A stretch of 58,875 bases of DNA from Bacillales bacterium UBA6879 (GCA_002449135.1 DKCH01000057.1:13954-72828); one strand, 5' to 3'; shown: positions 11,358 to 56,352, counted from the stretch's first letter. Program-made: numbers and translations. The notes: generated by a model not told the origin, from the letters alone.

Positions 11358-14300
11358 CTATAAGCCATCTTTTAAATAAAGGCTTTTAACAACTTTCTTG
11401 AATTTTTTACTATCAATAGTTAAAGCATAATAAATACCATGAACTAAATATAAACCAGTTAAAGAAATAGAAGTAAGCTTAATACCTGTATCTAATTTTG
11501 GAGTAGAATAAGTTAATTGATAATTAACATTTCCTTTTTCAGCAATAAAAGAAATTAAACCACCTTGACCCTTAAAATATTCTATAGGTACTTCTTTATC
11601 ATTTTCTATTTTACTTAATGACCAACCTTTATCATAAGCAACATTAAGTAAAACAAGTTTCTTTTCATTATAATTGGAACTAAAAGTATACTTATTAACA
11701 TTAACAATATTAACATTTTGTAAGCTATTTTCTTTTAATTTTTCAATATCAGAATTAAAAGCAGATTCAGTTTGATAATCAATAGAATCAACACGTATAG
11801 ATACATTTGTGTTTTGGCTTGAATTATTTTTATTACCTAAAGTTTCTTTTAATGTTCCTACAATTAAATAAACTGGTTCATCAACATAAAAACCACGAGA
11901 ATATTTCCAATCACCAGACTTATCATAATTATTTTGCATATGTTGATCATGAGTAATAAGCTTAAAACCATATGTCGGCCATGGATTAGTTTCTTTATCT
12001 AAATAATTTGGATACTTATCATTTTCACTAGTTAAATAATTAGGATTTCTTCCATAAAAAGCAAAATCAATATTATATCCAAACTTAGATTGTAAAGAGA
12101 CATATAACTTATTATTTTCATCAGCACTATTAGTAAAAGCAAACGGAGTTAAATAATTTTTATCTATAAAAATAACAAATTTAGAATTATAAGAAAGATT
12201 AGTATTGTAATTAGTAGTAGAAGAAGGAGTATAAGTATCAGCTGGATAAGTTCCTATATATGATGTGCGTCCATAAATAGTAGAATCAATTTCACCATCA
12301 TATTCTTCTTTTGAAGCTAGTTCTTCACTTGTAGGTGTTTGATTGTTTTTCTTTTTTAATAAGTAATTAGCATAATCAATAATTTTAGTCTTAGGTAAAA
12401 AACCACCAGAAGTATTTTCCATATCACTAGGGAAATTATTAATACCACCATTAGAATTTACATATTCTTTAATCCAAATATTAACATCATTATCTGAATA
12501 ATTAGGTGATAATGTTCTGATCTTTCCACCTTGACTAGTAGTATCCCAATTAGAATAATAAACAGCAGTTTTATAAGAATATGTTGTAGGCATATTTAAT
12601 TTATTTGCCTTATTAAAATCATTAAATTGATCCTTATTTTCATTATAATAAGTCTCATCAACAATTAAAGATTTTAAATAATTATATTCATTAAAATTAG
12701 AATCAGAAGAATTAGTCATCATATCAGAAGTTAAATAAGAATCATATCCAAACCCTAAGTTGATAAAATTCTTATTTTTATAAAGTTCAAAATTAGAATT
12801 CTTAATAGCTTGTTTTAACTTATCATATTTAGAATCATTAAACTCACTATCTTCACTAACTTTAACATAGTTAAATGGAATATTATTGTCATCTTTTCTA
12901 ACTAAATAATATTTAACACCTAATAAAGTATCTAAATTAGCTCTCTTTTCATGAATACCAAAAGTCCAACCACCAGAATAAGAAATTCTCGACCAATTAA
13001 ATAAATCCGTAGAATCATAATTATAAGTAGACGAAAACAAAGCTAAACCATTATAACCTTCAACCATTGCTAAATTAGGTTGACTACGTCCAGCTTGAGT
13101 ATTAAAAATTCTAAATAAATCAGAATCAACCTTATTTAATTCACTAACAATTTTAGTTTGTTCTTTAGTATTTTGATGCCCTCCATATAAAGAATTACTA
13201 TATGAAATATAAGTTTGTGCTTGCATAGAAATATTACCCATTACAACAGCTTCAAAACAAACAAGATATAAAATTTCCTTCTTAAAAGTCTTTGCATTAT
13301 TTCTAAAACGCAAAAACAAATAAACAAGAAAATACCATATAGATTGAAAAATAATTAATGGCAAAAATAAATTACCAGCCGGCTTCAAATTATAATAACT
13401 AGGATTTATTTTCTTATTCATTCTTAAAGAATAATAAGTAGTACAAATAAATAAAACCGCAATTAAAGCAAAAGAAACATCCAAATACCAACGTGGCATT
13501 TTCTTAATAGAATCGAAATGTAAAGAAACTAATAAAATCATCATTAAAATAGGAAAAAGCTGATAACGAGCATAAGCATTAGCAAACAAACCAGATAAAT
13601 AATAAAAGAATGGGGCTTCAACACTAATAACTCCAATAACAAAAAAGATTACATGACTATATTGTTTCTTCTTTATCGCATCAAATAAAGAAGGAAAAAT
13701 CATTAAAATTAAAGGAGTATAGAAAAAAAGATTAATACCAGCATTATCATAACCACTACCATTAAACAAAGTAGTAGAAAAAGAGCCAGTATTCATGTAT
13801 AAAAGTCCAGCTAATGGATAAAGATGCTTATAACTATCATTATCGCCCCAATAAAAAATTAACCTTAATTTATCCATAAAAGTTTCAGCATCTAACAAAT
13901 TACTTAAATAAGTAGTATTAGATATTCTTGGCATTTGTTGAATAAAAACATAATTAGGTAAAATAATAAACGAAACTAAGCCGATACCTAATACAAAAGC
14001 AACAAAGCCTAAAGAAATAACTAATAAATTATTTTTCCAGCCTCTTTTAAAGAATTCTTTTATATATTTACAAATCGCATAAACAAAGCTACAAATTAAA
14101 AAAATAGCAAAAAATTGATAATTCGTACATCCCATTAAAAAGCAAGAAACAATAAATAAACGAGCATCTTTCTTACTAAAAATTTTTTCAATTCCCCAAA
14201 GCATCAAAGGCAAAAAAGTAATAACTTCTTGAAAATGAAAAAACCATAAATAAAACCAACCCCAGCCACAAAAAGCATAAGCTAAAGAACAAAATTTTCT

Positions 14301-14843
14301 TGTAGTTTTACTCATTTTAAAGCTCGTTAAATATCCATAACAAAAAACAGCAGCTAAAACTAACTTTAAAATCATTATTAAAGCTTGAGCTTGTAATAAA
14401 AAAGAACGTGGAAAAATCAATAATAATAAAAAGAAAGGATCAAACAAATAATAAAAAGAATAAGCATCAATATTAGAAACACCAATTAACCCAGAAGTAT
14501 CCCATTCAGGAAAAATTCCAGTTCTAAAAAAATAATGCCAATCATCATACCCATTATAAATAAAAGTCATTCCCTGCAAATTAAAATCGCCAGAAATAGG
14601 CAAAGTAAAAGACTCAGTAAATAGGACGTAAGCATAAGACAAAAAAGCAATTATAAAAGACCAAAAAGCAACTTGCCAATAATTGTTCTTTTTCATCTTA
14701 TTAAATATTTTTAAAACATTATTTTTAAAATCAGAAAAAAAATCATTAACAGAATCAAAAACATCATAATAAAAATCAATAAAAGAACATTTAATTTCTT
14801 TTAAAAAAGAATGGGATGGATTTTTACTATAATTATTTAACAT
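11358..14843 (-). CDS. YfhO-like polytopic membrane glycosyltransferase (GT-C type) with a large C-terminal extracytoplasmic region
   Basis: 1161 aa. The N-terminal ~560 aa are polytopic with a YfhO-like start (PISGDFNLQGMTFIYNGYDDW...AYSFYYLFDPFFLLLLIFP). The C-terminal ~550 aa are hydrophilic and end in one more TM segment. Confidence 0.65.
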   Translation of the reverse strand: MLNNYSKNPSHSFLKEIKCSFIDFYYDVFDSVNDFFSDFKNNVLKIFNKMKKNNYWQVAFWSFIIAFLSYAYVLFTESFTLPISGDFNLQGMTFIYNGYDDWHYFFRTGIFPEWDTSGLIGVSNIDAYSFYYLFDPFFLLLLIFPRSFLLQAQALIMILKLVLAAVFCYGYLTSFKMSKTTRKFCSLAYAFCGWGWFYLWFFHFQEVITFLPLMLWGIEKIFSKKDARLFIVSCFLMGCTNYQFFAIFLICSFVYAICKYIKEFFKRGWKNNLLVISLGFVAFVLGIGLVSFIILPNYVFIQQMPRISNTTYLSNLLDAETFMDKLRLIFYWGDNDSYKHLYPLAGLLYMNTGSFSTTLFNGSGYDNAGINLFFYTPLILMIFPSLFDAIKKKQYSHVIFFVIGVISVEAPFFYYLSGLFANAYARYQLFPILMMILLVSLHFDSIKKMPRWYLDVSFALIAVLFICTTYYSLRMNKKINPSYYNLKPAGNLFLPLIIFQSIWYFLVYLFLRFRNNAKTFKKEILYLVCFEAVVMGNISMQAQTYISYSNSLYGGHQNTKEQTKIVSELNKVDSDLFRIFNTQAGRSQPNLAMVEGYNGLALFSSTYNYDSTDLFNWSRISYSGGWTFGIHEKRANLDTLLGVKYYLVRKDDNNIPFNYVKVSEDSEFNDSKYDKLKQAIKNSNFELYKNKNFINLGFGYDSYLTSDMMTNSSDSNFNEYNYLKSLIVDETYYNENKDQFNDFNKANKLNMPTTYSYKTAVYYSNWDTTSQGGKIRTLSPNYSDNDVNIWIKEYVNSNGGINNFPSDMENTSGGFLPKTKIIDYANYLLKKKNNQTPTSEELASKEEYDGEIDSTIYGRTSYIGTYPADTYTPSSTTNYNTNLSYNSKFVIFIDKNYLTPFAFTNSADENNKLYVSLQSKFGYNIDFAFYGRNPNYLTSENDKYPNYLDKETNPWPTYGFKLITHDQHMQNNYDKSGDWKYSRGFYVDEPVYLIVGTLKETLGNKNNSSQNTNVSIRVDSIDYQTESAFNSDIEKLKENSLQNVNIVNVNKYTFSSNYNEKKLVLLNVAYDKGWSLSKIENDKEVPIEYFKGQGGLISFIAEKGNVNYQLTYSTPKLDTGIKLTSISLTGLYLVHGIYYALTIDSKKFKKVVKSLYLKDGL

Positions 14844-14883
14844 AATGCCCTATATATAATCTTTATTAGTATATCATATATAT

Positions 14884-15828
14884 TTAAGCTTTAGAAAACC
14901 CAATTAAAATAGCACCACACAAAATAACAACTACACCAGTAATCATTAAAACATTTTCTCTTTTAGTATGTAATTTATATTCTTTTAAAACAAATAAAGA
15001 AAGAATAGTAGAAATAACAACCGCCATTTGCGATAAAGTATATCCTACTGCTGAACCAATAATAGGGTTAGCAAGCAATAAAAAGAAATTAGCACCACTA
15101 GATAAAAAACCTGGGAAAATTGAATAAAATAATTTCTTATCAAAAAGTGGTGTTAGATGAAAATCAGGATGTTGATGATGCTTTAATTCTTGACCAAAAT
15201 AAATAATTAAAACAACTATTATAGAACCAATAAAAGTTCCAATAGCATGAGGAAAAATAGTAGAAAAACTAGAAATATTAGTATTATAAGTAGCAAAACG
15301 CGGTAAATTAGAATAAAGCATAAAGAACAAAGCAGCTAGAATTGACATAATAAAACCAACAATTAGATCTTTTTTATTTTCTTCTTTTCTATTTTGACGA
15401 TAAGAAACTAAAAAAGTTCCAATAACAATAACAAAAATACCAGAAAAACCCATGCTTAATTGATATGAAGTTTGCCAATCATGAAAAACAATAACTGAAA
15501 ATAAAGCATTAAAAACTAAAGTAAAAGCTGTTCCAACTCCAAAAGCTAAGGAAGTAGAAAGTAAAAAATATGATATGTACTGAAAATATTGACCAATAGC
15601 CCAAACCATACCACTTAAGGCAGAAAAAATAATAATTTTCCAACCATTAGGGCCACTTAAATCATTTAAAGAAGTTTGTAATGTAGCTAAAAATACAATT
15701 GTTCCGACAATTAAGACACCTAACGACATTCCTAATTGTGTATGAATAGTTTTAGCTTTGATTTTAGTAACTAAACTTGGTTTAATTCCCCAAAAGATAG
15801 CAGAAATTATAGCATAAATAAATCCCAT
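14884..15828 (-). CDS. GRP-family sugar uptake protein (GlcU/RbsU-like)
   Basis: 314 aa with about 10 TM segments in two halves. Motifs AIFWGIKP, WAIGQYFQY and VFHDW resemble Bacillus GlcU (FWGS, WSLGQ, FREW). Confidence 0.6.
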   Translation of the reverse strand: MGFIYAIISAIFWGIKPSLVTKIKAKTIHTQLGMSLGVLIVGTIVFLATLQTSLNDLSGPNGWKIIIFSALSGMVWAIGQYFQYISYFLLSTSLAFGVGTAFTLVFNALFSVIVFHDWQTSYQLSMGFSGIFVIVIGTFLVSYRQNRKEENKKDLIVGFIMSILAALFFMLYSNLPRFATYNTNISSFSTIFPHAIGTFIGSIIVVLIIYFGQELKHHQHPDFHLTPLFDKKLFYSIFPGFLSSGANFFLLLANPIIGSAVGYTLSQMAVVISTILSLFVLKEYKLHTKRENVLMITGVVVILCGAILIGFSKA

Positions 15829-15865: not shown

Positions 15866-15903
15866 AAAAAAGCGGATAGAAATTAATTAATATTTCTACC
15901 CGC
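15866..15903 (-). terminator. Rho-independent terminator after the lipoprotein pair
   Basis: Minus-strand hairpin GCGGGTAGAAAT-(8 nt)-ATTTCTATCCGC (12 bp, one mismatch) followed by TTTTTT. It lies 9 nt after the stop of the 1186-aa ORF. Confidence 0.65.
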
Positions 15904-15911
15904 AAAATTCA

Positions 15912-18900
15912 TTAAAGATCAATGTAACTAATTTCTAGCTTAGTTGAAGCATAACTATCACTATTAGAATAAGTTACTTTTAAGTTATAAACTCTATTAT
16001 CAATTTTGATATTGGCTAATAAGACTTTTTCACCATCATCGTCAATAGTTTCGAAAGTATCCCATCCATTAGTTTTATAAATAGAAGATATATCACTAAA
16101 AATATCTTTCTTATAATTATCAGCAGTAATAGTTATATCATCATTACTAGAAGAAACACTAATATCTAAATTATCATCACCGAGATTTACAAATGGAATA
16201 GTAACTTTATCTCCTAAAACTTGTTTAAATAAACCTTGTTCACTAGTACTCCAACTATTCTTAGTAAAGTATGTGTAAGATGGCATATCAAAGATTTCAG
16301 CTTCAAAACCTAAATTCTCATTTGTTCCATAAGTATTTGCAGAAATTGTAAACTTGAATGTTGAATTAGTATCCATAGCTTTAGTAGCAAACACTTCTGG
16401 TAGATAATCATATCCGTAATAATTTTTATATCCAAATGGTCTATAAGTTACATCATAACCTTGTTGTTTTAAAGAATTATAAACTAAATTCATTTGATAA
16501 TTAGAATAATAAGCATCAGAATTAGTTAAATAGGCTCTAATAGTATCAGAATAAGATTGATTCTTTTTAATTTCAAATTTACTTTTATTTGTTCTTGAAT
16601 CCAAGAAAAGAAGTGGAGTAATTGTTTCATTAAAGAAATTAGATTTCATATATTCCAATGTCTTTTTTCCTTCAGGTAAGAATTTATCAAGTTCAGACCA
16701 AGAAGTAGCAGTTGAAGAAACAGTGCTAACAATAGGATCATAATAAATATCTAATTGAATCTTGTCATCTTCAGTTTGATAAATTCTAAATCTAATTGAA
16801 GTGGAGTCAGCAAAAATTTTATATGCTTGAATTTCATATTCCTTAGTATAACTTCCAGAAACAATATAATTTACATTCCATTCATTATTATTAATAGCTT
16901 TAAGTTCATTAGCTAAATAATCCATTACATCACTTCTAAAATTTCCACCAAGTAAAGAAATCTTTCTAGAGTTAACTATTGATTTACTAACAGTCATACT
17001 AGGATTATCACTATTAAGATAAATTAATGGGAAATCATCAATTTTTAATGTTTCTTTTAATTCTTTATCAATATCAGCAGGATAACTAGTAAAAGTATCT
17101 GGTTTAAATCCTTCTGTAAACTTAATAGTAAGTTCAGGTTTAGAAGAATTGCTATAATTGATAGTTGAAAACTCTAACTCTACTACATCTTTATTAGGCA
17201 TAGTTTTAGTTGCTTCAACAGACCAACTATTTGAACTAGTAATAGTAAATCCATTATCTTCTGCTTGTTTTTTAACATCAGTAAAATATGTTTCACCAAC
17301 TATACCACCTATAATATTTAATTCATCAGTCTTTGAACTATCTTCAGTAACAACAGGATAAGCAGTTCCTAAATAGAAATAAGGAAGCTCCAAACCATTA
17401 AATTTAGATTTAATTTTTTCACTTACACTCTTTGGCCAAGCTTTAGGTGCATTAGCTAAATCATATGTTTCATCAATTTTAATAGTACCATACATATAAT
17501 AACGCTCTCTACCATATGGCATATTAGTAATAGAAACTACAACTGTTCTTCCATCACTTAATTTTTTAGAAGCATTAATATTTTTAATATATACTTCATT
17601 ATAGTAATAAGAATCGCCAGCTAACATTTCAACTTTAAAGTCAGGATCACTAGCTAAAGCAGTATAAGCATTAATAATACGATAGTTAACAGAATTAGTA
17701 GCAACAAAATTCAAAGAAAGATTACCTCTACTAGTTAAAGTAATTTGATCACCATCTGAATAAGTATCAAAGAATGGAATTTCATTTAAATCCAAATCAA
17801 GTGTATCTTTCACTAAAGTTTTACTAGATTCTGACCAAGAAGTATTTTTAGATAAATTATCTGTCTTAGTAATATCTAAATATAATGTTTCATCTGCACC
17901 AGTACCTTTAGTAAATAACCCAACTTTATAAGTAGCATTTTCAAATTTCTTAATTGCTGCGGCATAGACCTTTCCATCTTTTTCACTAGAAGAAGAATAC
18001 ATCTTAGTTGTTTTATCAGTTACTACCCAATTTGCTTGACTATATTTAGTCTTAAAATTTTCAACAACTTTCTGATTAAATAAACCACCAGTAACAACCA
18101 TTTGATTATTGTAATTCTTACTAACTTCACCAGTAGGATTTTTAGTAGCTAAATAAACAAATGGTAAAACCGCCTCTAAATCATCAGTATAAGTATCTTT
18201 AAAAAGTGTTTTTAATTCTTCAGGATAAGTACTAGTAATAGTTTCATTATAAGCCTCTTCACTAGAAACAGTTAATAAAGGATAAAAAGAATCATCCTTA
18301 GCTACTCTTTCTAATTTAACACTTAAATTACCAAAAGATGTTACTTTAGTTAAAGTAAAATCAGTAGCTGAAGAACTCACTTCTTGCCACTTATCTGCAA
18401 GCAATTTTGCTTTAGCATCACTAACTATACTATCATTCCAAATCTTCCCTTTTAAAACCAATTTATGGGCACCAGAAGCAGTAGTATCAATATTAGGATA
18501 AACAGTACCTAAATAGAAATAAGGTAAAACCTCATTAAAGGCTAAACTCATTTTATTAGAAACTGTTGTAGACCAACTATCTTGAATAGTAGTATCAAAA
18601 ACTTCTTCTAAATGAACTCTTAATCTAGCCTTATTTTCATATTTATCAAGTTTAACAACCATCTTGTTACCTTTAGCATCAGTTTTACTAGCTACTACAC
18701 CATTAGTTGTGGTTTCATCAGTACCAACTTCCCAACCATCTTTAAATGCCTTAGTAAATTCTTCATTAACTGAGTCATTATAAATACCACCTGTAATAGT
18801 TAAAACATTACTAGTTTCATCATAATTAGTCTCATAATTCTCAGTTCCTAAGTATATAAAAGGTAGATTAAAAGTACCAAAATATTCTTTTAATTGAGCT

Positions 18901-19472
18901 TTAGTAACAGTAGTCCAATCAGTTAAAGTAGTATCATCAAAATCAGGTGAATAGAAAATCTTAGCTACCATAATATTAGAGCTATTAATAGAAACTTCTA
19001 CTTTAATGTGTTTATCATCATTAGAAGCAATTATTTCATTGTTCAATCTAACAACTTCCCACTTATATTTTTGATAATTTTCAACTGATTTAGCAAAACT
19101 GCTTTCCTTAAATTTTTCACCTGTTAATTTAATATAAGGTAGATAATTTTCGTTTGAATCATTTGAATCATAAACAGCATCAATTTTTTCGCCTAATTCA
19201 ATATAAGGTACAATAGTTCCACCAAGATATTTAACCATCATTTGAGTAATAGTTTCATTCCATGGACTATTTTCTTGTGTAATTTCTTGTTCAGTACTAT
19301 CAGATGAAGAAGTTACTTCACTAGTAGAACTAGAAACAGTAGAAGGTTCGCTAGAAGAAACAGCACCAGTAGAATCTGAAGAACTATTTTCATTACTAGT
19401 ATTTTGATTACAGGCTGTTAATAAAGTTGGTATTAATAAAAGTAATGTAAATAATTTTGTCTTTTTTGCCAT
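15912..19472 (-). CDS. giant surface lipoprotein, paralog B (repeated-module family, function unknown)
   Basis: Signal peptide plus lipobox (LLLLIPTLLTA-C), Ser/Thr-rich linker, then repeated modules carrying the W...[LIV]P[YF][FIV]YLG motif. RBS GAGAGG. 18-nt gap to paralog A. Confidence 0.85.
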   Translation of the reverse strand: MAKKTKLFTLLLLIPTLLTACNQNTSNENSSSDSTGAVSSSEPSTVSSSTSEVTSSSDSTEQEITQENSPWNETITQMMVKYLGGTIVPYIELGEKIDAVYDSNDSNENYLPYIKLTGEKFKESSFAKSVENYQKYKWEVVRLNNEIIASNDDKHIKVEVSINSSNIMVAKIFYSPDFDDTTLTDWTTVTKAQLKEYFGTFNLPFIYLGTENYETNYDETSNVLTITGGIYNDSVNEEFTKAFKDGWEVGTDETTTNGVVASKTDAKGNKMVVKLDKYENKARLRVHLEEVFDTTIQDSWSTTVSNKMSLAFNEVLPYFYLGTVYPNIDTTASGAHKLVLKGKIWNDSIVSDAKAKLLADKWQEVSSSATDFTLTKVTSFGNLSVKLERVAKDDSFYPLLTVSSEEAYNETITSTYPEELKTLFKDTYTDDLEAVLPFVYLATKNPTGEVSKNYNNQMVVTGGLFNQKVVENFKTKYSQANWVVTDKTTKMYSSSSEKDGKVYAAAIKKFENATYKVGLFTKGTGADETLYLDITKTDNLSKNTSWSESSKTLVKDTLDLDLNEIPFFDTYSDGDQITLTSRGNLSLNFVATNSVNYRIINAYTALASDPDFKVEMLAGDSYYYNEVYIKNINASKKLSDGRTVVVSITNMPYGRERYYMYGTIKIDETYDLANAPKAWPKSVSEKIKSKFNGLELPYFYLGTAYPVVTEDSSKTDELNIIGGIVGETYFTDVKKQAEDNGFTITSSNSWSVEATKTMPNKDVVELEFSTINYSNSSKPELTIKFTEGFKPDTFTSYPADIDKELKETLKIDDFPLIYLNSDNPSMTVSKSIVNSRKISLLGGNFRSDVMDYLANELKAINNNEWNVNYIVSGSYTKEYEIQAYKIFADSTSIRFRIYQTEDDKIQLDIYYDPIVSTVSSTATSWSELDKFLPEGKKTLEYMKSNFFNETITPLLFLDSRTNKSKFEIKKNQSYSDTIRAYLTNSDAYYSNYQMNLVYNSLKQQGYDVTYRPFGYKNYYGYDYLPEVFATKAMDTNSTFKFTISANTYGTNENLGFEAEIFDMPSYTYFTKNSWSTSEQGLFKQVLGDKVTIPFVNLGDDNLDISVSSSNDDITITADNYKKDIFSDISSIYKTNGWDTFETIDDDGEKVLLANIKIDNRVYNLKVTYSNSDSYASTKLEISYIDL

Positions 19473-19490
19473 AATATATAACCTCTCTTA

Positions 19491-22400
19491 CTATAAATTA
19501 ACTAAAGAAATCTTCACTGTAGTTTTCATACTAGTAGCAGTGTTCTCATAAGTAATAGTAACTAAATAAGTTTTTCCATTAACTGTCTTACTTATTAATA
19601 AAGAATGAATAAGATTACCATTTCTATCTTTTTCATAATTTTCAAAAGTATCCCAGGAATCAGCTTCAAAAGCTTTTGAAGTATCAGCAAAAATACTTTC
19701 TTTATAATTATAGAAAACTAAAGAAACATTTTTATCTGCAACATCAACTTTAGGATTAGCATCACCAAAATTAACATAAGGAAGTTTAAAGTCACTACCA
19801 AAAGCCTTAGTTAAAGCATCTAAAGTAGCTTGGTTATAATTAGTTAAAGTATTAGAATCATAACTTAATGTACGCATAATAGAAACGCTAAAACCATTTT
19901 TGTTATCTTCGCTATTTGCTAAAGCATTAACACTGATTTTTGTAGTACCTTTGCTATCGGTTTTACTAGCTAATAAACTTGAAATAGGCTCACAACTACT
20001 ATCAAATGCAGAATAAGAAACTTCATATCCTTGTTTTTCAAGAAGTTCTCTAGTTTTTAAAACATCAGCATTAGTAAAGTAAGCAGTACTATCTTTAATA
20101 GTAAATACTTTATTTCCACTACTAGAAGAAGAAGTTTCAATATTAAATTTAGTATTAGTCTTATCAGTAGCAAGGAATGAATCTATACTAAAATTATTGC
20201 CAAAATATTGTGAAATTTTACTAGATAAATCACTTTCTAAAGTATCCCAATTTGTTGCACTACTTTGAGTAGTTTGAAGATATTTATCATGAATAATATC
20301 TAATTGCATTTTTGAATCATCATTTTCATAGATTTTAAATTTAATAGATGAATTATCATCTAAAACTTTAGATCCAACTAAATAATAAGCTTTATACCAA
20401 TAACCAACTCCAACTACTTTAGCATTATAAGAATTACCATTTTCCTTAAAAACACTTAAAGCATAATTAAGTAAATCATCAGAATAACTATCACCAACTA
20501 TACTTAAAGAATCATCAGTAGTAGTAAATGTTGGAGTTTGAGTACCTAAATAAACATTTGGGAAACTGCTATCACCAACCTTAGTAAGTGCAGTTTTTAA
20601 ATCCGCACTATAAGAATAATCTTTTGGAGCCAAAGCCTTTTGATAAGAAATTTCAACATATGGCTTATCATTTTCAGTACTAAAGCTAAGATAAATAGTA
20701 TCCCCACTTTCTAAAACAGTATAGCCTACTAAGCCATAATATGAACTATTTACTTCATCAATAGTAAAACCATTTTTATTCAATTGTTCCCTAATATCAG
20801 TATAAAAGCTATCAGAATATGCATTACCAATAATTTTGAACTCATCATCATCAATAACAACAGGATTAGAAGTACCTAAATAGAAATAAGGTAATTCATA
20901 ATTATTAAATTTTTTCTTAACAGCATCACTAACTTCTTTAGGCCAAGCACTAGGAGCAGTAGCTAAATTATAATCTTCAAGTACGTTTATAACACCTGAC
21001 ATAGTATAACGATAATAAGAACTGCTACTTACGCTTACATTAATTTGTAAAGTACGGCCATCATCAAGCTTTTTATTACCAACTATGCTATTAATAAATA
21101 CTTCTTCATAATAATAGCTTCCACTAAAGCCTAAACTAACATCAAAACCATTAGTTTTCAAAACATTATATAAGTTAATAATTAAATAATTAAGATAATT
21201 AGTAGATACAAAAGAAATATCTACTTGTCCATCTTCAAAAGTTATAGGCTCACCAGAGCTCATAGTCTCAATAACAGGAATCTCAGAAGAATCAACCTTT
21301 AAATATTCTTTAAAAATACTTTTAGCAGAATCTGACCATGGAGTGTTTTTATCAACATTATCAGTTCTAGTAATATCTAAATAAGTTATTTTAGAGCTTT
21401 CATCGCCTTTAACAAATAAGCCAACTTTATAAGTGCCTTTATCAAATTTCTTAATAGCGGCACAAAGTACTACACCTGTTTCATAATCCAGGTCATCATC
21501 ACCATAACGAGAACTTACTTGCTTATCAACTATTACCCAGTCTTTAAATTTTTCTTTAAAGTTAGTTAAAATTCTAGCATCATAAAGACCACCAGTCAAA
21601 GTAATATGGTTAGAATATTTACTATCCTTTTCAACCATAGGTGATTTAGCTCCCAAATATAAATAAGGAATAAATTGATTCATTTCTTCTTTAAAAGTAG
21701 ATTTGAATGTATTAAGTACCTCACTAGGGTAACTAGTAGAAACAACATCATTATAAGCTTCATTTCTACTAATAGTTAAAACAGGATGATACAAATCATC
21801 ATCGGTATTTTCAACTCTTTCAATAGTTAAAATAAAAACATCACCATCTTTAGAATAGTTAAAAACTACTTTAGTATCAGTTTGACTTACTATACTCCAG
21901 CCAGTTAATTTAGCTTTAGCATCACTTATAATGCTGTCATCCCAATATTTTCCATTTAAAGTAATAGTTTTAGGATCAGTTTTACTAGTATCAATTAAAG
22001 GATAAGTAGTTCCTATATAAAAATAAGGAATTTTAATACTGCCTAAAGAAATACTCATTTGGTTAACAACTGCTGTTGACCAACTATCTTGTAAAGAAGA
22101 ATCAAAAACTTCATCAAATTTAGCAGTTAATCTAGCTCTATTATTATATTTATCTAAAGTAACAGTCATCTTATTACCTTTACTATCAACTTTAGTAGAT
22201 ACAATCGAATTATCTTCCTCACCTAATTTAGTTTCCCATCCAGCAGTTGAACTATAAACTTTACTGAACTCTTCATTAACTAAATCATTATAAATACCAC
22301 CAATTACAGTAAAAGTATCATCTTGGTAGCTTGTTTTATAAGTGTCATTACCTAAATAAACAAAAGGTAAACCAAAATTTCCAAAATATTCTTTTAATTG

Positions 22401-22994
22401 AGTCTTAGTAACAGCAGTCCAATCAGTTAATGTAGATGGATCAAAATTAGGCTGATAAAAGATTTTAGCAATCATTAAACCTGACTCATTAGTAGAAACT
22501 TTTAATGATAAATTTTTACTAGCTTTAGAAGCATATAAATTACCAGAATTATCAGTAACCACTTCCCATTTATATTCTTTGTAAGTAGTAATAGTTTTAG
22601 TAACCTTACTTTCTAAAAATTTTTCACCAGTTAAAAGAACATAAGGAAGATAATTTTCATCCTTATCATCTTCAACATATTTACCTTCAATAGAAGCTAT
22701 TTGACCTAATTCAATAAATGGAACAATACTACCTCCTAAATGTTCCATCATTAATTTAGTAATCTCTTCACTCCATGGTGAATTAGCTTCTGTAATTTCT
22801 TTTTCATCTTCACTACTACTAGAAGAACTAGTACTTGTAGAGCTACTTAATTCTGAATTAGAAGATGAATTAAATGAACTAGAATTTGAAAATGTAGAAT
22901 CAGTACTAATTGTGCCACTTGTACTGTCATTACAAGCAACTAACAAGCTTGGTAATAACAAAAGTAATGTAAAAAACTTTGTTTTTTTCCTCAT
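19491..22994 (-). CDS. giant surface lipoprotein, paralog A (repeated-module family, function unknown)
   Basis: Signal peptide plus lipobox (LLLLPSLLVA-C), poly-Ser linker (aa ~21-62), then nine modules of ~110-135 aa. Roughly half of the aligned N-terminal residues are identical to paralog B by eye. Confidence 0.85.
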   Translation of the reverse strand: MRKKTKFFTLLLLLPSLLVACNDSTSGTISTDSTFSNSSSFNSSSNSELSSSTSTSSSSSSEDEKEITEANSPWSEEITKLMMEHLGGSIVPFIELGQIASIEGKYVEDDKDENYLPYVLLTGEKFLESKVTKTITTYKEYKWEVVTDNSGNLYASKASKNLSLKVSTNESGLMIAKIFYQPNFDPSTLTDWTAVTKTQLKEYFGNFGLPFVYLGNDTYKTSYQDDTFTVIGGIYNDLVNEEFSKVYSSTAGWETKLGEEDNSIVSTKVDSKGNKMTVTLDKYNNRARLTAKFDEVFDSSLQDSWSTAVVNQMSISLGSIKIPYFYIGTTYPLIDTSKTDPKTITLNGKYWDDSIISDAKAKLTGWSIVSQTDTKVVFNYSKDGDVFILTIERVENTDDDLYHPVLTISRNEAYNDVVSTSYPSEVLNTFKSTFKEEMNQFIPYLYLGAKSPMVEKDSKYSNHITLTGGLYDARILTNFKEKFKDWVIVDKQVSSRYGDDDLDYETGVVLCAAIKKFDKGTYKVGLFVKGDESSKITYLDITRTDNVDKNTPWSDSAKSIFKEYLKVDSSEIPVIETMSSGEPITFEDGQVDISFVSTNYLNYLIINLYNVLKTNGFDVSLGFSGSYYYEEVFINSIVGNKKLDDGRTLQINVSVSSSSYYRYTMSGVINVLEDYNLATAPSAWPKEVSDAVKKKFNNYELPYFYLGTSNPVVIDDDEFKIIGNAYSDSFYTDIREQLNKNGFTIDEVNSSYYGLVGYTVLESGDTIYLSFSTENDKPYVEISYQKALAPKDYSYSADLKTALTKVGDSSFPNVYLGTQTPTFTTTDDSLSIVGDSYSDDLLNYALSVFKENGNSYNAKVVGVGYWYKAYYLVGSKVLDDNSSIKFKIYENDDSKMQLDIIHDKYLQTTQSSATNWDTLESDLSSKISQYFGNNFSIDSFLATDKTNTKFNIETSSSSSGNKVFTIKDSTAYFTNADVLKTRELLEKQGYEVSYSAFDSSCEPISSLLASKTDSKGTTKISVNALANSEDNKNGFSVSIMRTLSYDSNTLTNYNQATLDALTKAFGSDFKLPYVNFGDANPKVDVADKNVSLVFYNYKESIFADTSKAFEADSWDTFENYEKDRNGNLIHSLLISKTVNGKTYLVTITYENTATSMKTTVKISLVNL

Positions 22995-23032
22995 TTGATA
23001 TGTTTCCTCTCAAATCTTCTCGATTAAAACAA

Positions 23033-23061
23033 AATATAGCACAAAGAAAATCAATTGTAAA
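23033..23061 (-). promoter_or_regulatory. candidate sigma-70-type promoter of the lipoprotein pair
   Basis: Minus strand reads TTTACA-17 nt-TATATT with a TGc extended -10. It lies ~40 nt upstream of the RBS GAGAGGAAAC and the ATG at 22994. Confidence 0.45.
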
Positions 23062-23094
23062 CAAATTAAAGAATAAATTTTAAAAAACTTATTT

Positions 23095-23121
23095 AAAAAA
23101 GATGCTTAACAATTAAGCATC
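23095..23121 (-). terminator. Rho-independent terminator after the 437-aa membrane protein gene
   Basis: Hairpin GATGCTTAA-(3 nt)-TTAAGCATC followed on the minus strand by TTTTTT. Confidence 0.65.
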
Positions 23122-23142
23122 TTTGAAAACTATTTAATTAAA

Positions 23143-24432
23143 TTACTTAGCTTCAGAATCTTCCTTAGTTTCCTCAGCTTTTCTTCTAGTCTTTTTCTTT
23201 TGAATGTTATTAGCATCCATCATATCCTTAATTAAACCTTTAGCACGTTTAACAGAAAGATCAGAACCCACTTTGAAAACAAATGGAATCTCAGTATATA
23301 AAGATTTAGTAGAAGCATCACCATGTGGAATAGGAGTTGAATCATAAGCACGAGGAGAAAGTTTCATATAAAGCTTTAACTTTTTACCAGCAACAACAAT
23401 CTTCATATATTTAACAGTATGGAGACGGAAAGTATCACCAGTAGAAGAAACTCTAGATTTAACGCCATATGACATAATTTCATCTCTAATTTCTTTATAC
23501 TTTTCAATTAAAGCAGGATCAGCTTTATTTAATCTTTCTTCAAAAGTAATTCTTTTGAACTTTTCTTTAGCAAAAGAAGGTACAGCATCAACAGAATTTT
23601 CTTCTTCCTCATCTTCACCTTCATCTTCTTCAGGTTCGGATTCTTCTTCTTGATTCTCTTCAACTGGAGCTGTAGATTCTTCTAACTTATTAGCTTCTTC
23701 AACTACAGGAGTTTCTTCAACTATCTTATCAGCCTCTTCTTCAGGTTTTTCATCAGTTTGCCCATAAACAGCAACTGGCTCATCATCTTTAGGTTGTTCT
23801 TCAGCTTCAACTTCTTTTTCAGTAGAAGGTTCTTCTGGTTTAGTTTCTTCTTCAGCTGATTTATCTTCTTCAACTGGTTCATCATGAGCTTTTTCTACAT
23901 CATTAACTTCCTCAACAATTGAAGTTGTAGATTCTTCAGCTTCTTTTTTAGTAAAGAAAGCAACCATAACATAATTAACAACTTGAGCAAGACCATATAA
24001 AACAAAGAAAACAATAGCAACAATAAATAAAGAAGGAGAAGTAACTAAGTCAGAATAATTTTTAAAAGAAATATATCTACCAGCTAATAAAACAGAAATA
24101 GTAACAATTAAAGTAATAGTAATTTGAAAATATGTTAATCTCCATAAAGAATCTGAATATCTCTTCTTAATCATTAAAACAATTACTGCAATTGCAAATA
24201 AAGCAAGAACAATATAACAAACAATAGCAATATTAGGATTAGTTTGCATTAATCCACCTGAAAATAAAGACATTAAGTTAAACCATAAATTATAACCGGC
24301 TAAGGTTAAACCAGATTCCACATTAATAACTCTACTTTCTAACACTGTGCCTGCTCCACTAGTAAATAATAAAACAATGGCGACAATGAGGAAAACATAA
24401 CTTAGTACTGAGGTAATAATACTTTTTTTCAT
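23143..24432 (-). CDS. membrane protein with an acidic E/P-rich linker and a conserved basic C-terminal domain (function unknown)
   Basis: The ORF is open to 24456, but AAAGGAG lies 7 nt upstream of the ATG at 24432 (MKKSIITSV...), so I prefer that start. About 5 TM segments, then ~130 aa of E/P/K-rich linker, then a ~140-aa basic domain (FKRITFEERL...RLHTVKYMKIVVAGKKLKLYMKL...). Confidence 0.8.
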   Translation of the reverse strand: MKKSIITSVLSYVFLIVAIVLLFTSGAGTVLESRVINVESGLTLAGYNLWFNLMSLFSGGLMQTNPNIAIVCYIVLALFAIAVIVLMIKKRYSDSLWRLTYFQITITLIVTISVLLAGRYISFKNYSDLVTSPSLFIVAIVFFVLYGLAQVVNYVMVAFFTKKEAEESTTSIVEEVNDVEKAHDEPVEEDKSAEEETKPEEPSTEKEVEAEEQPKDDEPVAVYGQTDEKPEEEADKIVEETPVVEEANKLEESTAPVEENQEEESEPEEDEGEDEEEENSVDAVPSFAKEKFKRITFEERLNKADPALIEKYKEIRDEIMSYGVKSRVSSTGDTFRLHTVKYMKIVVAGKKLKLYMKLSPRAYDSTPIPHGDASTKSLYTEIPFVFKVGSDLSVKRAKGLIKDMMDANNIQKKKTRRKAEETKEDSEAK

Positions 24433-24501
24433 CTTTTTCTCCTTTCTTATTCCCATTTAAGTAGTCAAAAGTGGCATAAAAAATCTACTTTTCTATAATT
24501 T

Positions 24502-40688: not shown

Positions 40689-40764
40689 TGGTGGATCAGA
40701 CAGGACTCGAACCTGTAACGACCCGCTTATGAGACGGGGACTCTAACCATTGAGCTACTGATCC
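40689..40764 (-). tRNA. tRNA with CAU anticodon (Met or lysidine-modified Ile2; loop CUCAUAA resembles Bacillus tRNA-Ile2)
   Basis: 76-nt cloverleaf read by hand: GGATCAG/TA/GCTC-AATGGTTA-GAGT/C/CCCGT-CTCATAA-GCGGG/TCGTT/ACAGG-TTCGAGT-CCTGT/CTGATCC/A/CCA. CCA is encoded. Confidence 0.85.
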
Positions 40765-40768
40765 GAGA

Positions 40769-40844
40769 TGGTAGCAGCGGGGGGAGTCGAACCCTCGACA
40801 TATCGGGTATGAGCCGAGTGCTCTACCAGCTGAGCTACGCTGCC
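40769..40844 (-). tRNA. tRNA-Met (CAU), elongator-like
   Basis: 76 nt: GGCAGCG/TA/GCTC-AGCTGGTA-GAGC/A/CTCGG-CTCATAC-CCGAT/ATGTC/GAGGG-TTCGACT-CCCCC/CGCTGCT/A/CCA. It closely resembles B. subtilis elongator tRNA-Met. There is no C1:A72 mismatch or GGG:CCC anticodon stem, so it is not an initiator. Confidence 0.85.
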
Positions 40845-40889
40845 ATAATGAATCAATCTGATCACGCGATTGGCTTTTTATATAAAAAA

Positions 40890-40965
40890 TGGTGGACCTG
40901 ACGGGGATCGAACTCGCTACCTCCTCCATGCCATGGAGGCGCTCTCCCAGATGAGCTACAGGCCC
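40890..40965 (-). tRNA. tRNA-Ala (GGC)
   Basis: 76 nt: GGGCCTG/TA/GCTC-ATCTGGGA-GAGC/G/CCTCC-ATGGCAT-GGAGG/AGGTA/GCGAG-TTCGATC-CCCGT/CAGGTCC/A/CCA. The G3:U70 alanine identity pair is present and CCA is encoded. Confidence 0.88.
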
Positions 40966-41110: not shown

Positions 41111-41476
41111 TTATTTTTTCTCTTCTTCTTTTTTATCAAATAAATCAAACTTATTAGCTGTTAAGCCAACTACTTGACCTGCTGGGACTGCAAAGGCTAA
41201 ACCTTGACCATTTGTTTCTAAGCCAGCTTCATCATAAATTTTTTCTAAAACTTTATCGGAAGTTTCTCTGCTAGTAAGAATCAATACAACTTCTTTTTCT
41301 GGTTGGATAGCAATACCATAAAACAATTCCATTTCTTTATTACCAGTTCCACGGGCTGATAAGATAGTACCACCACGTGCCCCAGCTTTTCTACTAGCTT
41401 CCATTACTAAATCAGTATAACCTCTATTTACTATTGTAATAATTAAATCGTATTTATTATTATTTTCCATCTTCAT
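41111..41476 (-). CDS. PII-like signal-transduction protein (GlnB fold family)
   Basis: 121 aa. YDLIITIVNRGYTDLVMEASRKAGARGGTILSARGTG...EKEVVLILT has the beta-alpha-beta-beta-alpha-beta spacing and T-loop-like RGTG segment of PII-family proteins. 17-nt overlap with the upstream ORF. Confidence 0.6.
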   Translation of the reverse strand: MKMENNNKYDLIITIVNRGYTDLVMEASRKAGARGGTILSARGTGNKEMELFYGIAIQPEKEVVLILTSRETSDKVLEKIYDEAGLETNGQGLAFAVPAGQVVGLTANKFDLFDKKEEEKK

Positions 41477-41924
41477 TATTCCTTTCTACTTTATGTGAGA
41501 GACGATCTTCTTTTTTCATATCTGAGAAAAATTTATATGGCGCAATACCACTGATTTTAGTAATTGGTAAAGAAAAAGCAATTCCACGAGTATTATCAGA
41601 AGTTTGAAATCTCTTATTCGCTTCTTTTAACATATCGTTAACATAAGAAGTACGAGTAGGAGTTAATATTATTGTTCTCTTATTATCAAAGTCTCCTAAA
41701 AATGGAATCAATTCTTCAGGTGGTTGAGAATAACCATAAAGAACAACAGACATTCCTGCACCTAGTTCTGAATATTTGTCAGTAAAGAAATTTTCTTGAT
41801 GTCTTTTACAAATAGTAACAATTAAGGAAACAGGTATTAATTCTTCTTTATGTCTTTTTTCATAAAGATCTCTTGTTCCAACTTCTTTTTTTCTATTTTT
41901 TTCAAAATGTTTAAATAATTTCAT
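41460..41924 (-). CDS. second, more divergent PII-like protein
   Basis: 154 aa with RBS AGGAGG. The core VSLIVTICKRHQENFFTDKYSELGAGMSVVLYGYS...RTIILT parallels the downstream PII-like ORF. It has basic N- and C-terminal extensions. Confidence 0.45.
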   Translation of the reverse strand: MKLFKHFEKNRKKEVGTRDLYEKRHKEELIPVSLIVTICKRHQENFFTDKYSELGAGMSVVLYGYSQPPEELIPFLGDFDNKRTIILTPTRTSYVNDMLKEANKRFQTSDNTRGIAFSLPITKISGIAPYKFFSDMKKEDRLSHKVERNNEDGK

Positions 41925-41934
41925 TTAAAACCTC

Positions 41935-43623
41935 CTAATAACTTAAAGGCTCATTATTTTCAAGGTGAATAACTTGTTTATCATCAGCTTCAATAATTCT
42001 AGCTTGATTAATTCTAAAGACGATATTAGATTTAACTTTTCCATAAACACCTAATATTTCAATAGCTAATAAAGGACAAATATAAACAAGTCCAACCATA
42101 CCTGTTCCATATCTTACTGTTTCTTCTGCACTAGCAGTAGGATACTTAGCAACAAACATAGCAATTTCCATTGGTAATAAAAAGGCTGAAGCCATTGTCG
42201 AAGAAGCAATACCTGCACTATCTAAAGCTAGACCAGTATAAATATTTGGAACAAATAAAGTTAAAATAAAGAATAAAAGAAGCAATGGAATAATAATAAC
42301 AGTAATATCTATTCTAAATTGAACCTTTAAAATACCAAATAATAAAGCAGCACAAACTGCAACACATAAAGCCCCGTAAAGTTCTTTAATACCAATAGAG
42401 CCACGTGAAACTTCTTCAACTTGTTTACATAAAACATGAACAGCAGGTTCAGCTAAAATAATTAAAGTACCTATTAAAATACAAAGTAAAATTACCACAT
42501 AGAAATGATCTTGGAAACCAGTGCTACTAAAAGCTACACCTAGTTGTCTTGCAACAATCATAAATCCAGAATTTATACCAACCATAAAAACAGTCAAACC
42601 TAAAAATGTTTCAACTAAACCAATAAAGATTTTTTCTAATTCCTTTAAAGAAAGTTTTAAAAAGATAAAATTATAAGTCAAGAAGAACACAATCAAAGGT
42701 AAAATAGCAATACCAACATCAGTAATTGAACTAATAAACGCATCTAAATAATGTGAACCTAAAGAAGCATAATTCATAGGACCAATACCACCAGAAGAGC
42801 CAGAAACAACACTACCAAATAAACTTTCAGCATCAAAACCAATTGTAGTAGTTATTTTAGCCCATAAAAAGATTGTAATAATTGGACCTAAAGAGGCTAA
42901 ACCATTTAAGCCAAAAGAATCATCCTCAGCGTTTTTACCGCCTCTAAGTTGGGCAACAGCAATACCCATAGAAAGAACAAATGGTACAGTAATAGAACCA
43001 ATTGTAACACCCATACCATCAAAAACAATAGGGAAGAAAGATTCTCTATTAATTAATATTCCTAATCCAAAAGCAATTAAGAAAATAATATAAAGAATAA
43101 TCTTATATGACCATTGGAAAATAATTCTAATAAAAGCCAATCCCAAGAGTAAACCAACACCCAAAGAAACAATACTAATAATTACATATTTTCCACCTTC
43201 GCCCATTAATTGAGTAGAAAAAACAGTTAAATCAGGTTCAGCGAAAGTACATAATCCACCTAATAAAGCCGAAACAATAAATAACAATATAATAGACTTC
43301 TTCTTAGTTAAAGAAGAACCAACAGCTGCACCCATTTTATCAACAGCATTATCAGCACCAATCCCATAAAAAGACATACCTAATACCATTAATGGGAAAG
43401 CAATTAAAAAACATATTAAAGCTGGTGAAAAAACATATTTTCCATAATAATCAGAATAAAAATTCCCTTGAAAAATACTCGCTTCAGAAAAAATATTACC
43501 ATTAACATTAACAGTAGAACCAATCATCAGCAAACCAGAAAAATGCATAATTAAAATAACTAAAAAGAAAGGACCAATAGATAAGAAACTCTCTTTTATT
43601 CTTTCATAAACTACCTTAAACAT
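41935..43623 (-). CDS. internally duplicated polytopic membrane protein (DUF1538-like putative transporter)
   Basis: The ORF track starts at GTG 43641, but AAGGAGG sits 5 nt upstream of the ATG at 43623 (MFKVVYERIK...), so I prefer that start. Two homologous halves each carry a ...(F/L)AEP(D/A)(L/V).V... block (GGLCTFAEPDLTVFSTQL and LIILAEPAVHVLCKQV). Confidence 0.6.
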   Translation of the reverse strand: MFKVVYERIKESFLSIGPFFLVILIMHFSGLLMIGSTVNVNGNIFSEASIFQGNFYSDYYGKYVFSPALICFLIAFPLMVLGMSFYGIGADNAVDKMGAAVGSSLTKKKSIILLFIVSALLGGLCTFAEPDLTVFSTQLMGEGGKYVIISIVSLGVGLLLGLAFIRIIFQWSYKIILYIIFLIAFGLGILINRESFFPIVFDGMGVTIGSITVPFVLSMGIAVAQLRGGKNAEDDSFGLNGLASLGPIITIFLWAKITTTIGFDAESLFGSVVSGSSGGIGPMNYASLGSHYLDAFISSITDVGIAILPLIVFFLTYNFIFLKLSLKELEKIFIGLVETFLGLTVFMVGINSGFMIVARQLGVAFSSTGFQDHFYVVILLCILIGTLIILAEPAVHVLCKQVEEVSRGSIGIKELYGALCVAVCAALLFGILKVQFRIDITVIIIPLLLLFFILTLFVPNIYTGLALDSAGIASSTMASAFLLPMEIAMFVAKYPTASAEETVRYGTGMVGLVYICPLLAIEILGVYGKVKSNIVFRINQARIIEADDKQVIHLENNEPLSY

Positions 43624-43834
43624 TTTGTCCTCCTTAACCACTAAAATTATAAAAGAAATTTAATATCTAAATAAAGAAAAATCGTATTAAAACTTATATA
43701 TTTTAAGAATAATTCATTAACATTTGTTTTTATTTTACAAGATGTCTAGCATTTAGAATTTTTGTAAATAAATTTTTTACTTTTATAATTAAAAGAAATT
43801 ATATAAACTATAACTAGATAAAAAAGGAGACTTT

Positions 43835-52244: not shown

Positions 52245-52256
52245 ATTAAGTTCCTC

Positions 52257-56350: not shown

Positions 56351-56352
56351 TA

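Follow-up and report, generated by a model that had tools for sequence, protein, structure and literature searches.

What role is played by two large, adjacent lipoprotein genes for which no relative of known function is at hand? The pair, here called genes A and B, lies at positions 15,912 to 22,994 of a 58,875-nucleotide (nt) stretch of DNA from the Bacillales bacterium UBA6879 (GCA_002449135.1, DKCH01000057.1:13954-72828); the whole stretch is referred to as the window. The initial annotation, made from the sequence alone, had described the genes as paralogues forming their own transcription unit, and had suggested a surface function such as nutrient capture, adhesion or a protective coat. 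The analysis reported here indicates that each protein consists of a Ser/Thr-rich tether followed by nine tandem alpha/beta modules, an architecture overlooked at that stage. The reading that we favour, to which we assign a probability of about one half, is that A and B are lipid-anchored, extended surface fibrils with variable outward tips, serving adhesion or binding.

Two lipoproteins made of nine modules

In both proteins a signature of the type W(S/T)...hydrophobic helix...G...lP(Y/F)xYLG...GG...helix...gW...strands recurs every 110-140 residues. A profile hidden Markov model (HMM), trained on the nine segments of A and then iterated over family members, detects nine non-overlapping modules of ~115-130 amino acids (aa) in A as in B, and seven to nine in every homologue. 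Domain E-values in A range from 1e-10 to 1e-25, and the modules account for the whole of either chain beyond approximately residue 65. An AlphaFold2 model of full-length A, based on a 21-sequence family alignment, has a mean predicted local distance difference test score (pLDDT) of 82, with values of 80-93 for the individual modules, and a predicted template modelling score (pTM) of 0.47. When a single module was modelled (m2 of A, 65-module alignment), pLDDT rose to 94.8 and pTM to 0.86. High module pLDDT together with a pTM of 0.47 suggests well-folded beads, the relative orientation of which is undefined. In the model each bead has the order a1, a loop carrying the PYxYLG motif, and b1-b2-a2-b3-b4-b5-b6, where a and b denote helices and strands.

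The N-termini, MRKKTKFFTLLLLLPSLLVAC in A and MAKKTKLFTLLLLIPTLLTAC in B, feature a basic n-region, a Leu-rich core and a lipobox (LVAC and LTAC, respectively), and conform to the consensus M(R/A)KKTK-(F/L)FTLLLL(L/I)P(S/T)LL-(V/T)A-C21. Lipoprotein signals were defined by a basic n-region, a hydrophobic h-region and a lipobox [LVI][ASTVI][GAS]C with the Cys within ~15-35 residues of the start; A and B display all of these features, and 104 of 131 full-length family representatives carry a lipobox matching the pattern. Cys21 is an invariant column in the alignment of 21 homologues. The segment that follows is the least conserved region of the family (20% identity), and is plausibly disordered, since pLDDT is 24-29 over residues 1-60 of A and stays below 50 over residues 1-63. 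The predicted mature proteins are of ~128 kDa (A) and ~132 kDa (B), with a pI of 4.6. The coordinates of all features are given in Table 1.

Table 1. Features of the A/B unit (window coordinates) and of paralogue arrays in related genomes (locus coordinates)
Feature	Position	Strand	Basis or remarks
Intrinsic terminator ending the preceding 437-aa gene and delimiting the unit upstream	~23097..23124	(-)	AAGAUGCUUAA-UUG-UUAAGCAUCUU, then U-run; -12.3 kcal/mol, z = -4.1
Candidate sigma-70-type promoter	23033..23061	(-)	TTTACA-17-TG-c-TATATT, extended -10 TG; top-ranked site in scan, 10/12 matches with TG
Ribosome-binding site (RBS) of gene A	23005..23011	(-)	GAGAGGA, read directly; 10 nt before the ATG at 22994
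Gene A, first of the pair, 1167-aa lipoprotein precursor	19491..22994	(-)	Open reading frame (ORF), stop TAG
Signal peptide of A (aa 1-20) and lipobox Cys21 (L-V-A-C)	22932..22994	(-)	Sequence
Ser/Thr-rich tether of A, predicted disordered (aa 22-65)	22800..22931	(-)	Composition and AlphaFold2 pLDDT
Nine modules of A	19494..22799	(-)	Module HMM, alignment
A, m1	22437-22799	(-)	
A, m2	22098-22436	(-)	
A, m3	21753-22097	(-)	
A, m4	21363-21752	(-)	
A, m5	20979-21362	(-)	
A, m6	20634-20978	(-)	
A, m7	20280-20633	(-)	
A, m8	19863-20279	(-)	
A, m9	19494-19862	(-)	
A-B spacer, 18 nt	19473..19490	(-)	TAG-taaGAGAGGttatatatt-ATG, RBS GAGAGG; without stable hairpin or terminator
Gene B, second of the pair, 1186-aa lipoprotein precursor	15912..19472	(-)	ORF, stop TAA
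Signal peptide of B and Cys21 (L-T-A-C)	19410..19472	(-)	Sequence
Ser/Thr tether of B (aa 22-62)	19287..19409	(-)	Composition
Nine modules of B	15915..19286	(-)	Module HMM, alignment
B, m1	18933-19286	(-)	
B, m2	18591-18932	(-)	
B, m3	18249-18590	(-)	
B, m4	17862-18248	(-)	
B, m5	17472-17861	(-)	
B, m6	17106-17471	(-)	
B, m7	16728-17105	(-)	
B, m8	16281-16727	(-)	
B, m9	15915-16280	(-)	
Intrinsic terminator ending the unit	15872..15903	(-)	12-bp stem, 5 GC pairs and UUUUUU; -16.9 kcal/mol, z = -6.3; 0/200 shuffles as stable
Paralogue array, L011	1-19100		7-9 modules per paralogue
Paralogue array, L016	2585-23219		7-9 modules per paralogue
Paralogue array, L010	6375-17164		7-9 modules per paralogue
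Paralogue array, L019	2536-12903		7-9 modules per paralogue

The module is apparently a previously undescribed domain

Whole A and B were compared to Pfam and NCBIfam, and the best scores (10-15 bits, against cut-offs of 21-190) were nowhere near threshold; no catalytic signature was detected in either collection. The same holds for 65 single modules, which gave sub-threshold matches only, no Pfam family recurring in more than one of them. The module profile found nothing significant among all PDB sequences. The best match, the PASTA domain of S. aureus Stk1, was rejected as an identity: its E-value is 0.008 and it covers half of the module, whereas a significant match along the entire ~70-aa domain was required, PASTA is outside the top 50 Foldseek matches, and none of the 65 modules contains a Pfam PASTA domain.

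Structural membership was taken to require a significant E-value and a TM-score above ~0.5 on both query and target. Foldseek comparison of the single-module model with the PDB gave no match at E <= 1e-3 (best E = 3.4e-3). The best matches were BamC, a KA1 domain (TM-scores 0.51/0.54), DcrB, PsbP, YwmB and DUF4853; TM-scores were 0.3-0.45 for BamC, DcrB and PsbP, and only KA1 (5iri) exceeded 0.5 on both sides. Nothing significant was found in BFVD. A Foldseek run with the full-length nine-domain model gave TM-scores below 0.1 and meaningless matches, and was superseded by the single-module search. The statement of the initial annotation that no enzymatic or adhesin motif is recognizable thus holds against Pfam and NCBIfam, and the HMM and structure searches on single modules that it had called for yielded no confident match to a characterized family. 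The module is apparently a previously undescribed small domain, outside Pfam and devoid of significant PDB or BFVD neighbours. Literature searches retrieved no description of a nine-module lipoprotein family.

How widespread is the domain? A word-indexed search of 5.8 billion proteins retrieved 21 relatives of 930-1325 aa, without names or Pfam domains. By searching 1.84 billion (1.84e9) cluster representatives with the module profile in HMMER, 303 proteins were identified at E <= 1e-3, 135 of them at E <= 1e-30. Of the 150 best among the 303 matches, almost every one has seven to nine modules and measures ~900-1300 aa, short ones being fragment-like; the module is therefore confined essentially to the seven-to-nine-module architecture. 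No source gives a protein name to any family member. Genomic loci, designated here by L and a number, were retrieved by searching contigs with a seven-sequence family alignment. Seven come from metagenome-assembled genomes (MAGs) labelled as uncultured Bacilli, Bacillales, Firmicutes or 'Mollicutes bacterium UMGS238', the human-gut UQ.. accession series of which has been treated as RF39/RFN20 lineages (PMC7301438). The family is restricted to uncultured Bacilli/Mollicutes-like gut bacteria known from MAGs. The survey of related genomes proposed at the outset turned up family genes in arrays of two to at least seven elsewhere.

The A/B unit

The window has a GC content of 27%, long ORFs are unbroken under translation table 11, and TGA serves as stop in 4 of the 43 window ORFs. 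GC content and use of TGA are consistent with an origin from the 'uncultured Mollicutes/Bacilli' gut lineages, which retain TGA as stop (PMC7301438). A and B are colinear, being 39% identical over 1145 aa (BLASTP, E = 0), and both have near-copies in public assemblies (a 99%-identical protein for A, variants at least 99.5% identical for B). Promoter-like sites number 40 in this AT-rich DNA and 52 +/- 8 in its shuffles, and hence show no enrichment as a class; the credibility of the candidate in front of A therefore stems from its quality, and from its position between the upstream terminator and the RBS. No Rfam family matches in or around the unit. One predicted promoter, a gap free of terminators and a strong terminator at the end argue that A and B are co-transcribed as a single transcription unit. 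Boundaries, spacer, RBS, promoter and terminator are all located where the initial annotation had placed them, and its description of the pair as a self-contained unit encoding paralogous lipoproteins, each with basic n-region, Leu-rich core and lipobox Cys, is borne out by every sequence criterion applied. It had not mentioned that both genes are encoded by the minus strand, with the 1167-aa one in front. Its further argument, that the pair must be important because it fills 12% of the window, is weak; the unit indeed measures 7083 nt (12.0%).

Divergence of the modules and of the pair

Searches of the same 5.8 billion proteins indicate that A and B are mutual best matches (39-40% identity), the next best sequences being 34-35% identical. 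Mutual nearest relatives that share only 39% of their residues imply a duplication which is lineage-specific but old, in keeping with the view, already put forward in the initial annotation, that the copies have diversified rather than recently duplicated. The modules have a still longer history. Identity is 26-59% when an A module is compared with the B module of equal position, but ~17% (27% at most) between modules of different positions. The ninefold repeat is therefore far older than the gene duplication, and the individual positions have stayed distinct.

Conservation decreases along the chain. A and B share 76% of the residues in the signal peptide, 53% in m1, 59% in m2, 46% in m3, 40-47% in m4-m6, and only 31%, 28% and 29% in m7, m8 and m9, respectively. 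A similar gradient is found across seven orthologues and paralogues, from 40-44% in m1-m3 to 27-31% in m8-m9. Given an N-terminal lipid anchor, the least conserved modules would be those farthest from the membrane.

Variation within the species was assessed by comparing the window to L008, which is 99.75% identical at the nucleotide level over 23.6 kb. A differs by 8 nonsynonymous and 0 synonymous changes, B by 3 and 2. Against the resulting 11/2, the 12 flanking genes taken together have 9 nonsynonymous and 38 synonymous changes (Fisher p = 2.6e-5). Between these strains purifying selection is weaker on A and B than on their 12 neighbours. Differences are unevenly spread: between 5912 and 29472 of the window a single single-nucleotide polymorphism (SNP) falls in the ~6.3 kb that run from polC up to the 437-aa gene, but prfA, dnaX, recR and tmk have 7-15 per kb, a pattern which suggests recombination tracts between strains. 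In a broader sample, 15 variants of A are at least 99.1%, and 12 variants of B at least 99.5% identical to the window copies, and all are full length. Amino-acid polymorphism across the 15 A variants is concentrated in m7, where it includes a loop indel, and in m8; in B it is dispersed, with no clustering.

These data bear on the hypothesis that A and B are variable surface antigens of the mycoplasma style, switched or rapidly varied to elude immunity or phage. The nonsynonymous excess between strains would fit, and so would the multigene tandem arrays of related genomes, in which lipoproteins with conserved signal peptides have divergent bodies. Yet variants at least 99% identical and invariably full length imply that A and B are not hypervariable. 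The two genes are moreover predicted to be transcribed together rather than as alternatives; intragenic repeats are not near-identical, modules at different positions being only ~17% identical; and neither an invertible promoter nor a long simple-sequence tract is apparent in the 22990-23140 interval as read, the repeat scan having skipped units of 1-3 bases. We regard the hypothesis as very improbable, and disfavour it.

Gene neighbourhoods

In the window the pair is preceded by genes encoding a 437-aa transmembrane/acidic protein, PepF and PolC, and followed by those for a GlcU-type sugar transporter, a 1161-aa YfhO-family protein, prfA, prmC and dnaX. Gene order is the same in L008. The 437-aa protein (23143-24456, minus strand) starts with transmembrane helices, continues with a long acidic stretch rich in Glu and Pro, ends in a basic domain, and has no Pfam match. 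The GlcU-type transporter (314 aa) and the YfhO-family GT-C protein, unusually long at 1161 aa, lie directly past the terminator of the unit (11358-15828, minus strand); the Pfam YfhO match spans only residues 372-796 of the latter.

The sugar transporter gene, being the next one, could hint at nutrient capture, the modules binding glycans or peptides and passing them to membrane transporters, as surface glycan-binding lipoproteins do. Aromatic residues (W, Y-x-Y, W) are conserved in every module, and a host with a small genome presumably depends on scavenging. A terminator, however, separates the pair from glcU, no transporter is conserved beside family members elsewhere, and neither sequence nor structure reveals similarity to carbohydrate-binding modules, solute-binding proteins or peptidases. 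We hold nutrient capture to be improbable.

YfhO-type enzymes glycosylate extracytoplasmic polymers. One may speculate that the Ser/Thr tethers of A and B could be substrates of the YfhO homologue, though the YfhO neighbourhood is not conserved in relatives. Along the same line, A and B might form a protective coat, that is an abundant lipid-anchored layer, possibly glycosylated at the tethers, shielding a thin-walled or wall-less cell from bile, proteases, phage and immune factors. Large, acidic, Ser/Thr/Asn-rich proteins, highly conserved within the species, would suit such a layer, and abundant synthesis would be in line with a near-consensus promoter with extended -10 and strong RBSs on both genes; a glycosyltransferase of the GT-C type and a sugar transporter are encoded directly downstream, and peptidoglycan deficiency has been predicted for some lineages in related orders (PMC10868615). 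On the other hand, the proteins have no lattice-forming or S-layer homology, YfhO is not a conserved neighbour in relatives, and the deep divergence of the distal modules between paralogues fits specific binding better. We consider a coat unlikely, though somewhat less so than nutrient capture.

A different setting was found in relatives. The nine-module clade was sampled at 12 loci of further species (L001-L007, L009, L013, L014, which is partial, L015 and L020), and in all 12 the family gene lies directly upstream, on the same strand, of a Bat-like operon. The order is a 535-629-aa transmembrane/acidic protein, MoxR (AAA_3), DUF58, BatA plus VWA, and a ~897-aa protein with two VWA domains. 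Domains were assigned from L005, L009, L013, L015 and L020, and L001-L004, L006 and L007 were matched by ORF sizes and order. An early guess that the genes encoding products of ~540, 328 and 292 aa specify an ABC sugar importer was rejected, since Pfam identifies MoxR, DUF58 and VWA. The gap in front of the operon is 26-44 nt in most loci, ~200 nt in L015 and ~580 nt in L020, and in L005 no terminator was found between the lipoprotein gene and the next one. The 535-629-aa protein always sits between the lipoprotein gene and MoxR (L005 13397-15010; equivalents in L009, L013-L015 and L020). It has N-terminal transmembrane helices, a long helical/coiled region and a Gly/Asp/Glu-rich acidic low-complexity tail, lacks Pfam matches, and could belong to the Bat-like system as a lineage-specific part. 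The idea that the 437-aa protein of the window corresponds to the 537-aa transmembrane/acidic protein of relatives was discarded, because the two share no similarity. L020 (1-16480, 36% GC) hosts two family genes, one for 1257 aa, truncated by the locus end, and one for 1179 aa, 35% identical and separated by a 101-aa ORF, directly upstream of the transmembrane protein-MoxR-DUF58-BatA/VWA-VWA operon. Two copies ahead of the operon imply that duplication also occurred with linkage retained.

Linkage of the lipoprotein gene to the MoxR/VWA envelope operon is ancestral. As far as we found, neither this linkage nor the seven-to-nine-module architecture has been described. In the window, no MoxR-DUF58-VWA operon lies within 58 kb of the pair, and none is present in the 23.6 kb of L008. 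The clades with seven to eight modules form instead arrays of paralogues (three genes in L010, at least seven in L011, at least six in L016, three in L019 and two in L018), with no operon linked. Paralogues within arrays are 29-48% identical, with strongly conserved, nearly identical signal peptides. In L016, where five of the six large genes called were checked with the module HMM, intergenic gaps are mostly ~300-660 nt, which suggests individual promoters for most paralogues, and the last two genes are 30 nt apart.

The neighbourhoods raise the possibility that A and B are accessories or clients of a Bat-like MoxR AAA+/DUF58/VWA envelope system, in which VWA proteins bearing a metal ion-dependent adhesion site (MIDAS) would, together with the MoxR chaperone, mature, position or hold the lipoprotein. 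This hypothesis partly overlaps the fibril reading. The regular association with the operon, mostly at short distance and without intervening terminator in L005, speaks for it, and there are precedents in the pkb2-fn3-MoxR-duf58-tgm order of the Bifidobacterium PFNA cluster (PMC6803598) and in bb0170-bb0176 of Borrelia (PMC5700661). Weighing against it are the window pair, which has its own promoter and terminator and no operon at reach, and the equally unlinked arrays of the seven-to-eight-module clades. Abundance differs as well: MoxR of this type gives at least 7991 matches at E <= 1e-60, and is 75-81% identical across thousands of them, against ~300 for the lipoprotein family. MoxR is thus far more widespread than the lipoprotein, which is at most a lineage-specific addition, not a core part of the operon. 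As an account of A and B themselves we hold the client hypothesis to be rather unlikely. A bolder version is just as doubtful: the family could be the extracellular working part, and the first identifiable surface client, of an unrecognized Bat-type envelope machine in Mollicutes-like gut Bacilli, equipped with a new domain, the window pair having been uncoupled from the operon and possibly forming a heteromeric fibre.

A model for A and B

According to the fibril reading, A and B would be exported by Sec, lipid-modified on Cys21 and cleaved by signal peptidase II. The mature proteins would thereby stay anchored on the external side of the cytoplasmic membrane, in an uncultured, low-GC, small-genome and Mollicutes-like gut bacterium of the Bacilli. 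The nine modules, derived from an ancient internal ninefold repeat and joined by short linkers, would measure ~3-4 nm each, and build, if extended, a bead-on-a-string fibril of ~30 nm. The conserved proximal modules m1-m3 may contact each other, the membrane or, in relatives, the Bat-like MoxR/DUF58/VWA/transmembrane envelope proteins, while the most diverged distal modules m7-m9 would face outward and contact ligands. Gene duplication, to two copies here and to at least seven elsewhere, would serve to diversify the distal, ligand-binding part.

Gene structure, signals, module architecture, distribution of the family, the gradient of conservation and the neighbourhoods are what the data show; that the proteins are lipidated, extended, exposed at the surface and engaged in binding or adhesion is what we infer, and several observations count against it. 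For A and B, neither a ligand nor a binding motif nor homology to adhesins was found. The residues conserved in each module (W, P-Y-x-Y-L-G, G, W) may simply form the structural core. The extended shape is deduced from the low pTM of a model. Neither Lgt nor LspA is among the window ORFs scanned. The dN/dS between the paralogues, a check advised in the initial annotation, was computed and comes to ~0.8 by the Nei-Gojobori method (NG86), a value uninterpretable because synonymous differences (pS = 0.46) are near saturation at 27% GC. The 11:2 ratio of nonsynonymous to synonymous changes between strains is equally expected from relaxed constraint, and does not single out positive selection; and conservation of at least 99% within the species means that there is no strong ongoing diversification. 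As to the surface functions originally suggested, the choice among nutrient capture, adhesion and coat is a matter of inference.

Bacteria of the RF39, RFN20 and ML615J-28 type ('uncultured Mollicutes') are frequent in the gut of humans and animals, and to our knowledge nothing is known of how their surfaces meet the host. The family is a concrete candidate for the host-facing surface of RF39/RFN20-type gut bacteria. We likewise know of no established function for the Bat-like and PFNA MoxR systems themselves, and linkage in the sampled loci provides a possible handle on what MoxR/VWA systems act on. Should A and B be merely another kind of adhesin-like lipoprotein, what would be gained is a new family of domains, together with a marker for the surface of these organisms.

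Other features of the window

Eight genes, tightly packed or overlapping, form a run at 47427-57018 (minus strand) and encode products of 827, 534, 246, 747, 204, 173, 244 and 221 aa. The sole Pfam match is an ABC ATPase at 51504-52244, and the 204-aa product (54497-55111) has a lipobox-like N-terminus (…ITILSC). The run may specify an uncharacterized envelope or transport system. Ribosomal protein S2 (46048-47163, minus strand) is 371 aa long, and the Pfam S2 domain covers only residues 44-259, leaving an unusually long C-terminal extension. Three tRNA genes lie in a row at 40692-40965 (minus strand); beside them (41111-43641, minus strand) a gene starting with GTG encodes a 568-aa DUF1538 membrane protein, and is followed by an ORF of 154 aa that lacks Pfam matches and then by the gene of a P-II-like protein.

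Comparison with known systems

Single modules bring to mind small, generic two-layer alpha+beta sandwich domains, several of them from envelope lipoproteins, in which two helices pack on one antiparallel sheet: the BamC helix-grip (3tgo, 6v05), DcrB (6e8a), PsbP/Mog1-like proteins, YwmB (2fpn), DUF4853 (4mjg) and KA1 (5iri). Foldseek probabilities reach 1.0, with TM-scores of 0.3-0.54, root mean square deviations of 3-12 A and identities of 5-16%. The likeness is at the level of the fold only and establishes no membership, and the A/B module, unlike those domains, occurs in seven- to ninefold tandem. The second half of the module also recalls PASTA (S. aureus Stk1, 3m9g, 3py9), both having the succession G..(helix)..G[WF].v plus strands; the E-value of 0.008 is below significance for 177,635 sequences, and the resemblance concerns half a module.

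Bat-like operons are known from Bacteroides, Leptospira and Borrelia (PMC5700661). As in the Bifidobacterium PFNA cluster (PMC6803598), the gene of a multidomain surface protein adjoins MoxR-DUF58 in the 12 related loci. In contrast to PFNA, the family is made of lipoproteins with a novel module, not FN3; and the window pair is unlinked to any operon of this kind. TPR/BatC, BatD or transglutaminase genes were not seen.

Mollicutes have large multigene families of surface lipoproteins, such as Vlp, Vsa, Vsp and VlhA of Mycoplasma. The A/B family shares with them a signal peptidase II-type signal, a lipobox, conserved signal peptides, divergent mature parts and tandem arrays of paralogues (two genes in the window and in L020, besides the arrays of L010, L011, L016, L018 and L019), and hosts are in both cases host-associated organisms with reduced, low-GC genomes. 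Yet there is no sequence relationship, and the A/B proteins are far larger (~1000-1300 aa). Seven to nine folded modules, ancient and specific to their positions, take the place of short, nearly identical repeats; the 5' region as read revealed no element of phase variation, and sequences are at least 99% conserved within the species.

In the sortase-anchored repeat adhesins of Firmicutes (MSCRAMM, Big/Ig-repeat proteins), small folded repeats form elongated strings that stand out from a cell of the Gram-positive type, and the distal end of which is more variable. A and B, if elongated as we suppose, are built on the same plan, with a predicted N-terminal lipid anchor in place of a C-terminal LPXTG, and alpha/beta modules in place of all-beta Ig-like ones. 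Their C-termini (...TVKISLVNL in A, ...KLEISYIDL in B) lack the LPXTG/hydrophobic/basic tail, and no Pfam adhesin domain was detected in whole A and B or in single modules. The family resembles both the lipoprotein families of Mollicutes and the repeat adhesins of Firmicutes in kind, and is a member of neither.

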